In this document: positions 3 through 60,867 of the stretch, in pieces
Layout: every line of letters begins with the position of its first letter
Position numbering within the stretch: the stretch's first letter is position 1
Position numbers and translations under genes: made by a program
The notes under the pieces: model-generated
Seen by the model: only the letters and a program-made list of their open reading frames with translations
Told to the model about the DNA's origin: nothing
Databases searched by the model: none
From: a virus
Length of the DNA: 64,000 nt
Virus record (IMG/VR): IMGVR_UViG_3300025536_000015
Strand: one strand, 5' to 3'

Positions 3-218
3 TCCGTCGCCGCTTGCTCCAGCGCGCCCGTAAAGGCCCCGCTGGCCGTCGGCTGCGGCCCGACCCAGTACACGCGTCAGATAAACGCCGCCTCGTCGGC
101 GGTCATCAACATGTGCTTCCTCGCGGACGGCAGCGTCAAGTGGACCGACGGCGAGGCCGTCCCCGTCGCCCCGCAGATTAAACCGAAGAAGACCGCCACT
201 GCTACGAACAAGAAATAG
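3..218 (+). CDS. 3' part of a small, probably exported protein (truncated by window start)
   Basis: Open frame from nt 3 (SVAACSSAPVKAPLAVGCGP...TATNKK) ending TAG 216-218, 9 nt before the rep gene. Confidence 0.5.
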   Translation, partial: SVAACSSAPVKAPLAVGCGPTQYTRQINAASSAVINMCFLADGSVKWTDGEAVPVAPQIKPKKTATATNKK

Positions 219-9417: not shown

Positions 9418-9608
9418 TCGCCGCCGACTACATGCTTCGTCGCCGCCTATTGCTCAAGGACATCAAGCATCTCCGCGACCAGATAGTAGTTATCACGACA
9501 CGCGTGGCGCAGATGCAGGCGTCCGCTGATCGATTAAACCAACAGGCCGACCGATTATGCCGAGAGTTGGCATCCCTTGACAGAAAAAAATCGCAGGAGG
9601 GACAGTGA
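9414..9608 (+). CDS. Small coiled-coil protein
   Basis: ATGA-coupled ORF with heptad pattern. Confidence 0.45.
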   Translation: MIAADYMLRRRLLLKDIKHLRDQIVVITTRVAQMQASADRLNQQADRLCRELASLDRKKSQEGQ

Positions 9609-9922
9609 GACATATCAGCCAAAGCCTGGCCTGCCTGTTGGTTGCCGCCGCCGCCGCAACCTTGAGCGGGTGCGTCGCCACCCGTGACGACCTCCGCCGC
9701 GCCGACGAGGCCTTCCTGCGCGCCGGGCTGACCGTCGCTCAGGCGGAGGCGCAGCTCGGGACATCCACGGGCCCCGTCACCGTCCTGGCGACCGCGCGCC
9801 GCAGTTGCACCACCGCGCGCTACACCCGAATCTACGGCCTGGCCGGCATGGCCCCCGTCAACGACTACTACCTGACCTACTGCGGCGGCCGGCTCGTCAC
9901 CTGGGTGATCGAACGACGATGA
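9605..9922 (+). CDS. Predicted lipoprotein
   Basis: Signal peptide ending in lipobox LSGC. Confidence 0.65.
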   Translation: MRHISQSLACLLVAAAAATLSGCVATRDDLRRADEAFLRAGLTVAQAEAQLGTSTGPVTVLATARRSCTTARYTRIYGLAGMAPVNDYYLTYCGGRLVTWVIERR

Positions 9923-10161
9923 AGACGCGCTTCCCCGAGATCGGCATGACCGTCCGCAAGCACTACAAGTGCGCCTGCGGCCGTTGGGTCACGCGCTCGA
10001 AACGCTTCTACCAGACGATAAACCCATACAACGTCACGGCCAGCGGCTTCATGAAGGACCAGTACCAGATCCTCGCGGAGTGCCGCCAGGAAGCCGCCGC
10101 CTGGACGCGCAAAAAGGATCCATGCACCCACAGCGCCCACGCCGTCAAGGAGATCAGATGA
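9919..10161 (+). CDS. Hypothetical zinc-ribbon protein
   Basis: ATGA-coupled; KCACGRW. Confidence 0.5.
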   Translation: MKTRFPEIGMTVRKHYKCACGRWVTRSKRFYQTINPYNVTASGFMKDQYQILAECRQEAAAWTRKKDPCTHSAHAVKEIR

Positions 10162-10376
10162 ACCGCGCCACGCTCGAGGAAGCCGAGGTCAAGTGCCGCC
10201 GCATCGGCACGCTCATCGGCAAGGACATGCCCGCCGGCTGGGGCTTCACCCTCATCCTGACCAGCTTCGGCGACAACGGCTACAGCACCTACCTCAGCAA
10301 CTGCCAGCGGCCCGACATGATCAAGGCCCTGCGCGAGATGGCCGACAAGCTCGAGAGCGGCGCACCGCAGCGATGA
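10158..10376 (+). CDS. Conserved hypothetical protein
   Basis: AAGGAG SD; GFTLIL...YLSN..R.DMI.ALRE. Confidence 0.55.
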   Translation: MNRATLEEAEVKCRRIGTLIGKDMPAGWGFTLILTSFGDNGYSTYLSNCQRPDMIKALREMADKLESGAPQR

Positions 10377-10603
10377 GCGAAAACTTGGATCCGTTCTGCC
10401 CGCATTGCAAACAGGCGATTGTCCCGCGTTATATTCGGATTCACCATATCCCGATGTGTGCCGATCTCGCCGCCGCAAGGGCCGCGCTGATGAAGATCGA
10501 CGACCGCGTGAACAATGAAGGCGATGACTCTCAGGCTTGTGTCAGCGATATTGGACACATTGCCCGCGCGGTCCTCGCCAAGCACACCGGGGGCAAGCCA
10601 TGA
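10373..10603 (+). CDS. Hypothetical protein
   Basis: ATGA-coupled; FCPHC. Confidence 0.45.
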   Translation: MSENLDPFCPHCKQAIVPRYIRIHHIPMCADLAAARAALMKIDDRVNNEGDDSQACVSDIGHIARAVLAKHTGGKP

Positions 10604-10752
10604 GCCAAGATAAAGTTCATAAATGCCGTGGAGACTACCGCACGGTTTGCGGGAAGAAATGCGGGAGAGTGTGGTGCCGAGGCCGCAATGGCAGAATTAA
10701 AGTAACCTGCCTGCGCTGTCGCCGCGTCTCCCCCAAGGGCGCGGGCAACTGA
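10600..10752 (+). CDS. Small Cys-rich protein
   Basis: ATGA-coupled; TVCG...VTCLRC. Confidence 0.45.
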   Translation: MSQDKVHKCRGDYRTVCGKKCGRVWCRGRNGRIKVTCLRCRRVSPKGAGN

Positions 10753-10896
10753 CGCGCGACACAGATCGATGGGTGGCCGCGCTGAACAAGCTCGCCCGAG
10801 ATATGGACGAGAATGCCGAGGCGATGCACGAAAGCGCCTGGAAAGAACAACTGGCCCCAGAGCGCGAGGCCTACACGAATCTGGCGAAACGCGGCC

Positions 10897-11010
10897 CTAC
10901 TGCGCGCAGGTGTTCGGCCAGACGCAAGGCTTAAACTGAGCGGCCGCCGGCGCGGGCCGGAGCGCGGCCCAGGCGAGCAGGAGCAACACGACGATCGCGG
11001 TGTTTTTCAT
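10897..11010 (-). CDS. 37-aa secreted peptide precursor MKNTAIVVLLLLAWAALRPAPAAA-QFKPCVWPNTCAQ
   Basis: Manual translation; n/h/c signal peptide ending AAA; 13-aa mature part with C-x5-C; too short for the ORF track. Confidence 0.65.
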   Translation of the reverse strand: MKNTAIVVLLLLAWAALRPAPAAAQFKPCVWPNTCAQ

Positions 11011-11072
11011 GCGCTCATCTTAGCGTAGCCCCCCGGCCGCGGTCCTTGACCGGAGTCAACTCCTCCCACTAT

Positions 11073-11102
11073 TTGCGTCAGGCGTATAAGCCCTGTTACC
11101 AT
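11073..11102 (+). promoter_or_regulatory. Candidate promoter TTGCGT-N18-TACCAT upstream of terS
   Basis: Extended -10 TG; same architecture as 18459 and 24752. Confidence 0.4.
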
Positions 11103-11109
11103 ATGACGC

Positions 11110-11760
11110 ATGCCGAGGAAGAAATCGGGCGAGGGAATCCAACAATACGAGGCCTTCGAGACCTGGTTCTGGATGCACCCGCGCTCGTTCGATAAGTTGG
11201 CGGAAGGCTTGAAAGTCACCTCCTCGATCGTGCGCGTCTGGCACGCAAAATATCGGTGGGAGGAACGCGCCGAGGAACGCGAGAAAAAGATCAAGACAGA
11301 CCTCGCCAACAAGAACGACGCCGAGGCGGTCAAGCAGCGCTCCAACATCATCAACGTGATGCAGGCCACCATGGCGCGCTACGCCGCCCGCCTGCTCAAA
11401 GACCCTGCGGTGCGCGACCAGCACGGCGTCACGCAGTACGAGCCGACTGCGGCCGACGCGGTCCGCGCCGCCCAGTTGCAGATCGTATTGGGAGGCGGGG
11501 CCACGAGCCGCACCGACATCACGATGGGCTCAGGCTTCACCGACGCCCTGCTCGCCATGGTGGGTGCCACCCTGCGCCGCGAGCTTCCGACCTGTTGCCC
11601 GAACTGCCGCGCCGACCTGGGCGGCCTGCCGGGGCGCATCAGCATGAAGCTCATCGAAGCCGCCTCCGGCCTGGCGGCCGACGCCGCCGCCGCCGTTCCG
11701 GTGCCGTTAGCGGGCTCCGTGGGCCGCGCCGAGAACCCCGACGAAGCGGGGCCGGAGTGA
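11110..11760 (+). CDS. Probable terminase small subunit
   Basis: N-terminal HTH (RSFDKLAEGLKVTSSIVRVWHAKYRWEER); position before TerL. Confidence 0.7.
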   Translation: MPRKKSGEGIQQYEAFETWFWMHPRSFDKLAEGLKVTSSIVRVWHAKYRWEERAEEREKKIKTDLANKNDAEAVKQRSNIINVMQATMARYAARLLKDPAVRDQHGVTQYEPTAADAVRAAQLQIVLGGGATSRTDITMGSGFTDALLAMVGATLRRELPTCCPNCRADLGGLPGRISMKLIEAASGLAADAAAAVPVPLAGSVGRAENPDEAGPE

Positions 11761-11960
11761 ACTCCCTGCGCGACCCGAAGGCGCTCGCCGGCAACGACCA
11801 GGACGGAACGATCTGGTGCGGCCTCTGCGCCTGGACGAGCAAGGCGCGCACGGTGGAGCTCGTAGAACACCGCGTCCAACAGCACCTGGCCGCAGCGCAC
11901 GGCCGGCGCGCGTTGTCGCGGTTCGACCACGACCTGCAGAAAAAGGTGATGCTCCCGTGA
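11757..11960 (+). CDS. Small C2H2-type zinc-binding protein
   Basis: WCGLCAW...HRVQQHLAAAH; GTGA-coupled at both ends. Confidence 0.5.
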   Translation: MNSLRDPKALAGNDQDGTIWCGLCAWTSKARTVELVEHRVQQHLAAAHGRRALSRFDHDLQKKVMLP

Positions 11961-13519
11961 TCCTGCAAAGCGCCGCGCCCGCCTTCGACCAAGCCGCCAT
12001 CGCCCGCCTCCCGTTTGCCGCCCTGGTCGCCAGCAGCATGCGCACCCTGGCGCGCGGCATCGACTCCGAGCACGTGCGCCTGCGCGACTTCTTCCGGCCC
12101 GCCTGGGGCATCGTCAACCCCGGCGTGCAGTACGTCCCGAACTGGCACAACGACCTGATCGCCGAGCATCTCGAGGCCGTCCACCTGGGCCAGATCAAGC
12201 TCCTCGACATCGAGATGCCCCCCCGCATGGGCAAGAGCTTCCACGTCTCGGTCGCCTTCCCGGCCTGGGAGTGGACCGAGGACGCCGGCGAGCGCTTCCT
12301 GTTCTCGTCGTACAACCAGAAGCTCTGCAACCGCCACAGCCTCGACCGCCGCGCCGTGATCTCGAGCGCGTGGTACCAGAAGAAGTGGGGCGAGTTCGTC
12401 ACCCTAGCCCCCGACCAGAACCTCAAAACGGAGTTTCAAAACACCGCGCGCGGGCACATGATCACGGCCCCGTTCGGCTCGAGCGGCACGGGGTCCGGCG
12501 GCCGGCGCCTGGTCATCGACGACCCGCTCAACCCGAAGCAGGCGAGCTCGAAGGTGCAGCGCGAGGCCGCCCACGACTACTACCGCGGCACCCTCTCCAC
12601 CCGCCTCGACGACGAGCACCACAGCGCGATCATCATGGTCGCCCAGCGCACCGACGTCGACGACCTGCAGGGCAAGTTCGTCAACGAGAAGGACGGCTGG
12701 ACGGTCCTGAAGATCCCGATCCAGGCCAAGAGCCGCACGGTGTACATCTTCCCGATTTCCAAGACGGAGAAGGTCTACGAGGCCGGCGAACTGCTCTGCC
12801 CGGCCCGCAAGTCGCAGAAGGGCGTCGACGCCCTGCGCAAGGCACTCAGCAACCGCGCGGCCGCGCAGCTGGACCAGGAACCGGAAGCGGCGAGCGGAAA
12901 CCTGTTCCCGCGCAACAGCTGGAAGAAGATGACGGAGATGCCCACGCCGCTATTCATCCTTAACGCCTGGGACACCGCCGTCAAGGAGCGCGAGGAAAAC
13001 GACCCGAGCGCCGGCCTTTGCATCGTCCTCCACGAGGGTGGCTTCCATTTCTGCAAAGGCGTCACGCACGGGCATATGCGCTTCTCGGAATTGAAACTCG
13101 CCGTGCGCGAGAGGTTTGACCTCGACCGCCCCGACGCCGTCTTCATCGAGGACAAGTCCAGCGGCCAGCAACTGATCCAGGAGTTCCAAGACGACCGCCA
13201 GGTGAACATGCCGCTCGTCGTGTTCAACCCCGACGACGAGGGGCCCGAGGCCGAGGCTTGGAAAGCCTGGTTCAAGATGGACAAGTACGCGCGCGCCCAA
13301 CTCGTTCAACCCTTGTGGGCCGCTGGCCGAGTGTCCTATGATCCGAACATGGAAGGCGCCGCCGACATGATCGCCGAGTTTGCGTCTTTTCCCAAAGGCC
13401 TTAAGGACCGCGTCGACGCCGGCGTCCACGGCGTGCGCTACTTGTCCCGCCTCAACCTGAACGCCCCGCCGACCGAGGAGGTCGAGCAGGCCGACGGCGA
13501 CATCACCGACGGACTCTAG
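11957..13519 (+). CDS. Terminase large subunit
   Basis: Walker A PPRMGKS, Walker B VIDDP, nuclease AWDTA...DRVDA; start probably GTG 11957. Confidence 0.92.
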   Translation: MILQSAAPAFDQAAIARLPFAALVASSMRTLARGIDSEHVRLRDFFRPAWGIVNPGVQYVPNWHNDLIAEHLEAVHLGQIKLLDIEMPPRMGKSFHVSVAFPAWEWTEDAGERFLFSSYNQKLCNRHSLDRRAVISSAWYQKKWGEFVTLAPDQNLKTEFQNTARGHMITAPFGSSGTGSGGRRLVIDDPLNPKQASSKVQREAAHDYYRGTLSTRLDDEHHSAIIMVAQRTDVDDLQGKFVNEKDGWTVLKIPIQAKSRTVYIFPISKTEKVYEAGELLCPARKSQKGVDALRKALSNRAAAQLDQEPEAASGNLFPRNSWKKMTEMPTPLFILNAWDTAVKEREENDPSAGLCIVLHEGGFHFCKGVTHGHMRFSELKLAVRERFDLDRPDAVFIEDKSSGQQLIQEFQDDRQVNMPLVVFNPDDEGPEAEAWKAWFKMDKYARAQLVQPLWAAGRVSYDPNMEGAADMIAEFASFPKGLKDRVDAGVHGVRYLSRLNLNAPPTEEVEQADGDITDGL

Positions 13520-55737: not shown

Positions 55738-55767
55738 GCGCGGCGGGGACACGCCTCCCCGCCGCGC
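55738..55767 (+). terminator. Perfect 12-bp stem hairpin
   Basis: GCGCGGCGGGGA/TCCCCGCCGCGC; weak U-tract. Confidence 0.5.
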
Positions 55768-60289: not shown

Positions 60290-60682
60290 ATGAGCGACAC
60301 GACGGGAATGGTCCACGCCGATCCGCGCCGCGCCGAGGCCGAGGCACTGGCCAAGGTCGCGCCGCACCTCAAGCGCATCAAGACACGTATCATGGCCTGG
60401 GCGACGAACGCCGGGGAGAACGGATTGACCCCCGACGAGTTCGCGCGGGAAACCGGGGCGCTCATCAACACGGTGCGCCGGCGCTTCGTGGACCTTTGGA
60501 AGGCCGGCGAGCTCAAGCCCACCAAGATGACGCGCCCGAACGCGCGCGGCAACCCGGAGACGGTCTGGGTCCTGGGCCACGACGCGCTCGGTGCGGCGGT
60601 GCGCGAGACCAAGGACCAGAAGATCAAACGCCTCGAGGCGCGCGTCGCGGAGCTTGAGAGCACCCTGAGCCGAGCGATATGA
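60290..60682 (+). CDS. Winged-helix DNA-binding protein
   Basis: GLTPDE...INTVRRRF.DL...G.L. Confidence 0.65.
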   Translation: MSDTTGMVHADPRRAEAEALAKVAPHLKRIKTRIMAWATNAGENGLTPDEFARETGALINTVRRRFVDLWKAGELKPTKMTRPNARGNPETVWVLGHDALGAAVRETKDQKIKRLEARVAELESTLSRAI

Positions 60683-60867
60683 CCAACGACCAGATCAAGG
60701 CGCACACGATCGACTTCGCCATCAAAATGGCCAACGACGGTGCCGAGCCGGCCGACCAGCTGACGGCCGTCGCGTTGCTGATCCAGTGCAGCTTAAAGGC
60801 CGTAACGCCTTTGCAACGGACGAAGATCGCCAGCATTTACTTCGACACGATCAGGGCAAACTTGTGA
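60679..60867 (+). CDS. Hypothetical protein
   Basis: ATGA-coupled ORF. Confidence 0.5.
   Translation: MTNDQIKAHTIDFAIKMANDGAEPADQLTAVALLIQCSLKAVTPLQRTKIASIYFDTIRANL

Follow-up and report, generated by a model that had tools for sequence, protein, structure and literature searches.

We analyzed a 64,000-nt stretch of viral DNA (referred to here as the window) that represents almost all of a 65.6-kb circular phage contig (G000:C72) with its genes on the plus strand; from position 55765 onward, the window corresponds to the contig from position 59. A preliminary description of this DNA, made from the sequence alone, had proposed that a lone minus-strand ORF at the boundary between early and late genes encodes a tiny secreted peptide with a Cys loop. 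Our translation of this ORF reproduced the earlier one exactly, and its ATG is the first start codon of a 40-codon open frame. As had been described, the ORF is divergent from terS, and a short plus-strand ORF overlaps its 3' end. We confirmed both neighbors and list them with the other features of the locus in Table 1. TerL lies downstream of terS (approximately 11957-13519, plus strand). The convergent plus-strand ORF scores weakly for codon usage (0.08 per codon; GC3 0.70-0.72), with no Pfam or PHROG match, no tblastx match in related phages, and no record as a called protein.

Table 1. Features of the peptide locus, in window coordinates.
Feature	Coordinates	Strand	Basis or remarks
Peptide gene, 37 codons plus TAG stop	10897..11010	-	Codon profile, homologues
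Predicted signal peptide, residues 1-24: MK, 15-residue hydrophobic core, RPAPAAA, AxA at -3/-1	10939..11010	-	Rule-based test; putative cleavage site
Predicted mature 13-aa peptide QFKPCVWPNTCAQ, one family unit	10900..10938	-	286-unit consensus
terS, divergent neighbor	11110..11760	+	phrog_6299, E 3.8e-11; PF10668, weak
Convergent ORF, 53 aa	10773..10934	+	Overlaps last 38 nt of peptide gene
Perfect palindrome TTGAC-N4-GTCAA, FNR/CRP-family type box	11046..11059		23 nt upstream of -10-like hexamer, centered at ~-42.5
-10-like hexamer TAAGAT, 6 nt before ATG	11017..11022	-	Layout shared with L025 and L026; putative transcription start

The codon profile of the ORF is gene-like. Its GC content at the three codon positions is 0.62/0.54/0.86, compared with means of 0.61/0.47/0.82 for 16 confident genes. 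By codon log-odds score it ranks third among 277 small ORFs outside confident gene frames, and the score itself is close to the lower quartile for length-matched segments of true genes. We note that the top codon score among such small ORFs (0.57 per codon, GC3 0.86) belongs to a 35-codon ORF at 111-218 (+), which is probably another real micro-gene. A rule-based signal-peptide test was passed by 10 of 3287 candidate ORFs in the window, including the peptide ORF; three of the ten are real plus-strand genes. A 32-aa minus-strand ORF at 60624-60722 with a lipobox-like signal (...LGSGC), the other signal-like minus-strand ORF that we checked, also passed, but it overlaps a plus-strand gene with a GC3 of 0.89, has a poor codon profile of its own, and is probably spurious. 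The earlier view that the peptide ORF is the sole convincing minus-strand gene was not contradicted.

The calculated monoisotopic mass of QFKPCVWPNTCAQ is 1518.68 Da with a disulfide, or 1501.65 Da if the N-terminal Gln also cyclizes; an N-terminal pyroglutamate is possible on the predicted mature peptide. A terminator-like hairpin downstream of the gene (10871-10853) does not exceed shuffled sequence in stability (z -0.7), and we dropped it as a feature of the locus. The stretch was found only in its probable source DNA run, with no RNA run among the sequencing matches listed, and the ESM Atlas held no usable match for the peptide or for its relative P0127.

The preliminary description had named a lack of conservation, along with a lack of transcription or translation, as what would count against its reading. 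We found conservation: a filter-free phmmer (HMMER) search of 1.84 billion representative proteins returned 124 matches at E<=1e-3, 16 of them at E<=1e-10 (best 1.6e-15), most with 2-4 matching stretches each. The relatives are 36-135 aa long and consist of a hydrophobic N-terminus followed by 1-4 tandem units of the form A-Q-F-x-P-C-V-W-P-N-x-C. In a logo of 286 units, both Cys residues and the Pro after W are invariant, V is present in 277 units, W in 266, and N in 228, and the preceding A-Q-F and P are strongly conserved. The window peptide agrees with every conserved column (Q-[FVI]-x-[PT]-C-V-W-P-N-x-C, containing C-x5-C), and the N-terminal Gln and Cys loop of the preliminary description are features of the family. 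A 12-residue stretch of the predicted mature peptide, QFKPCVWPNTCA, is also present in P0123, P0127, and P0216. An A immediately before Q-F, after the hydrophobic segment, is found in the window (PAAA/QF, with the slash at the predicted cleavage site) and at the same junction in P0165, P0181, P0191, P0208, P0237, P0238, and L080; AxA/Q(F/I/V) is conserved in all family members with classical signal peptides. Together with the rule-based test, this junction bears out the classic signal peptide of the preliminary description.

Based on its homologues and codon profile, we conclude that the ORF is a genuine gene. Export of its tiny product, cleavage after AAA, and a Cys5-Cys11 disulfide are predictions that draw on the conserved junction and on what is standard for the Sec pathway, signal peptidase I, and Dsb proteins. 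Neither Pfam nor NCBIfam has a model for the AQFxPCVWPNxC family, and a literature search found no paper that prints the CVWPN motif; we regard the family as previously undescribed.

We searched 185,579 species genomes, one per species, with a degenerate DNA pattern for Q-F-x-P-C-V-W-P-N and obtained 51 loci. All 51 are in Elusimicrobia/Elusimicrobiota MAGs, two of them labelled only 'bacterium'. The genes at these loci usually contain several units each, often as 2-3 paralogous genes in tandem, and third codon positions vary beneath the conserved residues. P-C-V-W-P-N was detected in 37 of 401 sampled Elusimicrobiota genomes, mostly larger ones, while a reversed control pattern gave three matches. 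The phage contig is binned with a MAG of another phylum (discussed below). In that phylum the longer pattern was absent from all 400 genomes, within the MAG it occurs on the phage contig only, and a tblastn-type peptide search of the MAG and 60 relatives returned noise only. An exact-pattern search of viral contigs for CVWPNTC, a probe put forward in the preliminary description, yielded only two chance matches. Judged by this distribution, the family is confined to a subset of Elusimicrobiota plus phages. The original interpretation as an exported tiny Cys-loop peptide is supported, with a correction as to origin: rather than having arisen in a phage, the peptide is a single unit of a multi-unit family encoded on Elusimicrobiota chromosomes.

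Conserved neighbors at the 51 host loci include a Crp/Fnr regulator, an exported TPR protein, an exported 298-aa protein, a metallophosphoesterase, and nucleotide-salvage genes. Beside the host genes at these loci we found no maturase (radical SAM, cyclodehydratase, or peptidase/ABC exporter), transporter, conserved processing enzyme, or receptor. RiPP multi-core precursors, in contrast, have a neighboring maturase. A link between the peptide and a B12 radical-SAM gene located 16 kb away on the phage was considered and rejected, because the host loci carry no such enzyme. The first ten residues of host-type family proteins (L029-L079) follow the form M-[ILM]-[polar]-L-[IL]-L-x-L-S-L, with no Lys or Arg. 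Such N-termini depart from classical signal peptides, which makes export less certain for the host proteins than for the phage copies.

At least five other phage contigs carry a single-unit copy with a classical Sec signal peptide (AxA/Q). Of these contigs, L026 shares several genes with this phage at 61-87% identity, and its peptide gene is the sole gene on its strand, antisense to all neighbors. On either side of the L025 copy are opposite-strand genes, including a member of the Pam3_Gp34 family; the L080, L094, and L098 copies are on IMG/VR contigs. Like the copies in L025, L026, L080, and L098, the window peptide contains one unit and not 2-4 in tandem, a state that defines a phage-type subgroup and does not argue against homology. 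For the 13-codon core of the four high-GC phage copies (window, L025, L026, and L080), pN/pS is ~0.1-0.3, indicating that the core is under purifying selection. The hydrophobic segment differs completely between phage copies, and the C-terminal loop is conserved. In L026 (6202-6408), the unit reads C-V-Y-P-N-R-C and the frame continues for ~40 residues beyond the point at which the window gene stops, through a hairpin and T-run; this copy may be decaying or extended.

The window contains a single match to TTGAYN4RTCAA (0.09 expected), namely the palindrome in Table 1, and in an alignment of the window with L026 conservation begins, upstream of the ATG, at this palindrome. A perfect TTGAC-N4-GTCAA is located 22-23 nt upstream of a -10-like hexamer in each of the four high-GC phage copies, and in the window, L025 (TAGAAT), and L026 (TACCAT) the hexamer is followed by exactly 6 nt and the ATG. 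A box matching at least 8 of 10 positions lies within 110 nt upstream of 66 of 69 host genes, compared with 4.8% of random windows, and of the 49 exact boxes found across the 371 kb of host loci, 37 fall immediately upstream of family genes, in regions that make up 2% of the sequence. TAnnnT is found 5-7 nt before the ATG in 31 of the 69 host genes, which therefore look leaderless. The main TTGAC-to-ATG distance in host genes is 48 nt, which places the box end 34 nt from the ATG, in agreement with the phage copies (35 nt in the window); for family genes with a Shine-Dalgarno (SD) leader, the box would be expected further upstream. This layout implies for the window gene a leaderless mRNA whose first nucleotide would be the A of the ATG. 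The preliminary description had listed a weak SD as a caveat, which the conserved leaderless layout accounts for. The layout is not universal among phage copies: on the low-GC contigs L098 (1305-1433) and L094, one of which is 210 kb, the single unit is a variant (...ARA/NVEPCVWPNHCITK), the SD is strong, and an FNR-type box is missing.

Class II FNR-dependent promoters have a palindromic TTGAT-N4-ATCAA-like site centered near -41.5. If transcription starts at the ATG, the window palindrome is centered at ~-42.5, a position that fits such a site. The geometry, conserved in L025 and L026, is that of a class II FNR/CRP-family promoter, which an FNR-type protein would be expected to bind and activate. 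In 19 host loci, a gene for a Crp-family regulator (cNMP_binding plus HTH_Crp_2) is directly upstream of the family gene on the same strand, and in 19 of 19 the encoded regulator has C-x2-C-x5-C plus a fourth Cys, an FNR-like feature. A neighbor with four invariant Cys suggests both the identity of the regulator and that it senses oxygen. Since TTGAC is also the -35 consensus, the box signal could in part reflect a plain promoter. We note that terS lies on the other side of the symmetric palindrome. The distance from the box end to the terS ATG is 50 nt, with a TATAAG hexamer 25 nt beyond the box, and the palindrome might also affect the late/packaging promoter on that side.

The MAG with which the phage contig was binned is placed in Novosphingobium by rpoB. 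Tetranucleotide usage of the phage is close to that of Elusimicrobia loci of similar GC (r 0.94, distance 0.022) and further from that of the rest of the MAG (r 0.86, distance 0.033; the 5th percentile of random 8-kb pieces is 0.031). TerL does not discriminate between hosts, the best identities being 39% in Elusimicrobiota and 36% in the MAG's own family (placed with Novosphingobium by rpoB). Based on the restriction of the peptide family, the promoter, and the tetranucleotides, we consider it quite likely that the host belongs to Elusimicrobiota and that the contig was mis-binned; the Novosphingobium binning could reflect a real association. A phage gene at 9605-9922 (+) encodes a lipoprotein-type signal (...LSGC lipobox), and in the relative L006 the early region in question contains a gene of the BamE family; each of these is compatible with a diderm host.

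The position of the peptide gene at the early/late boundary holds for this phage but is not fixed. In the two closest phages (TerL 82-83% identical), the syntenic gap upstream of terS contains no ORF like the peptide gene, and a related phage carries it elsewhere. Its absence from this gap indicates that the gene is dispensable. Close relatives were also sought by blastn against phage records and by scanning viral and genome contigs with terS and TerL, with no useful result. In Pfam and PHROG scans, none of the nine ORFs between 9605 and 13519 matched a receptor-like family. A PHROG scan of ten early-region ORFs, a partial survey of the region, identified no integrase or repressor; the matches were to replication, kinase, HNH, and methylase families. 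Phage morons such as lambda bor and lom are accessory genes with their own promoter that lie between modules, often on the opposite strand, and are variably present among relatives. The window gene is alike in setting, and differs in its predicted 13-residue product and its putative host-regulon (FNR-type) leaderless promoter.

We consider it probable that the ORF is a functional host-derived moron, i.e., a single-unit phage version of the Elusimicrobiota family of exported Cys-loop repeats, and we propose the following mechanism. A host FNR-like Crp-family regulator would bind the TTGAC-N4-GTCAA box at ~-42 and activate a class-II-type promoter, and the transcript would begin at the A of the ATG, so that no SD is needed. 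The 37-aa precursor would be exported by the Sec pathway and cleaved by signal peptidase I after AAA, releasing the 13-residue peptide, in which the Cys5-Cys11 disulfide would form in the periplasm and the N-terminal Gln may cyclize. The core of this product is identical to the host units (2-4 copies per host protein), and the phage would thereby supplement or imitate the host peptide pool. The phage peptide would be under the same physiological (oxygen/redox-type) control as in the host, independent of the unidirectional transcription program of the phage. The Elusimicrobiota genes and the phage copy share the unit, the AxA/Q junction where a classical signal is present, and the spacing of FNR-type box, -10, and ATG. 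The phage copy differs in having one unit and not 2-4, in having an MK-type Sec signal in place of the M-I/L-polar-L-I-L N-terminus, and in forming an antisense island in a phage genome.

With respect to function, the peptide may act as a host-signal mimic or as a redox/metal peptide. That the unit is nearly invariant speaks against strain-specific pheromones and bacteriocins and leaves two readings: (i) a ligand of a conserved receptor; and (ii) a redox or metal role. An extended form of the first reading, which we consider unlikely, is that the Elusimicrobiota pGlu-F-x-P-[C-V-W-P-N-x-C] loop is an oxygen/redox-gated, multi-copy extracellular signal, and that phages have repeatedly captured the unit with its FNR-dependent leaderless promoter, forging the signal to steer host populations during infection. 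If true, this would be the first peptide signaling system of the phylum and the first phage counterfeit of a host peptide signal under the control of a host oxygen sensor.

Apart from the moron interpretation, we weighed four other explanations. A periplasmic helper, in which the Cys pair (with Trp and Asn) buffers thiol/disulfide balance or binds a soft metal and the phage copy serves as an auxiliary stress gene for the infected cell under oxygen or redox change, would be in keeping with the predicted control by an FNR-like four-Cys regulator, with a unit nearly invariant family-wide, which is unusual for strain-specific pheromones or bacteriocins, and with the loose Ala/Pro/Val-rich linkers of the multi-unit host proteins, beside whose genes no dedicated processing enzyme was found. 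We nevertheless find it rather improbable: one 13-residue unit is a very small dose next to several host genes of 2-4 units, the unit is without a His/Met-type metal motif, and the neighborhoods examined gave no link to metal or oxidative-stress genes. A chance ORF within GC-rich intergenic DNA has next to no probability. The ORF is short, no pipeline calls it (there is no record of it as a called protein), and it is missing at the same position in the closest phages, yet the homologue search effectively refutes this reading, and purifying selection, conserved promoter geometry, and the gene-like codon profile stand against it as well.

The conservation pattern also bears on an uncleaved small membrane peptide (a type I toxin, holin-like, or exclusion peptide) with its hydrophobic N-terminus as an anchor. 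A length of 37 aa with a 15-residue hydrophobic stretch suits such a peptide, as does the convergent overlap with a plus-strand ORF or transcript, often seen for type I toxin genes. However, conservation resides in the C-terminal loop and not in the hydrophobic segment, the AxA/Q junction is conserved, and the host relatives are multi-unit, soluble-looking proteins, making a membrane peptide very improbable. To an arbitrium-like phage-to-phage peptide steering lysis and lysogeny we assign equally little weight. Arbitrium AimP of Bacillus SPbeta-like phages is a phage-encoded, Sec-exported precursor that yields a very short extracellular peptide, and the window gene is likewise phage-encoded with a Sec signal and a very short predicted mature product. 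AimP, however, gives a linear, phage-specific C-terminal hexapeptide that is paired with AimR, a TPR-HTH receptor, and with AimX, and we know of no host homologues of it. The window peptide is a predicted disulfide loop whose core is shared by many host chromosomal copies and very different phages, and therefore could not report a phage-specific infection history. The ORFs scanned include no TPR-HTH receptor (nine ORFs, 9605-13519) and no integrase or repressor (ten early-region ORFs). The preliminary description had itself set the peptide apart from the linear arbitrium peptides and reported no receptor, and our scans agree.

The Clostridioides phage phiCDHM1 reportedly carries a host quorum-sensing agr cassette. 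It would likewise be a phage copy of a host secreted-peptide gene, while the phage studied here has no processing or sensor genes. The heat-stable enterotoxin STa, a Sec-exported precursor with a small Cys-constrained mature peptide, is an analogy only: STa has three disulfides compared with one predicted here, there is no sequence similarity, and the window peptide has no animal link.

A 114-nt ORF ignored by every gene caller is thus a conserved gene, tied to a peptide family that has no database model or literature, and its predicted 1.5-kDa product is concrete and easily synthesized. The promoter comparison suggests a way for phages to bring an accessory gene into an oxygen-sensing regulon of the host, namely by copying a leaderless FNR-type promoter. 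To our knowledge, few phages are known for Elusimicrobiota, and this analysis reassigns a complete 65.6-kb phage, found in a Novosphingobium bin, to a host that probably belongs to Elusimicrobiota; the probable binning error would mislead host assignment of a complete circular phage contig. Finally, a 50-aa Cys/Arg-rich ORF just upstream at 10600-10752 (+), for which there is no family match, contains eight Cys residues with zinc-ribbon-like spacing.
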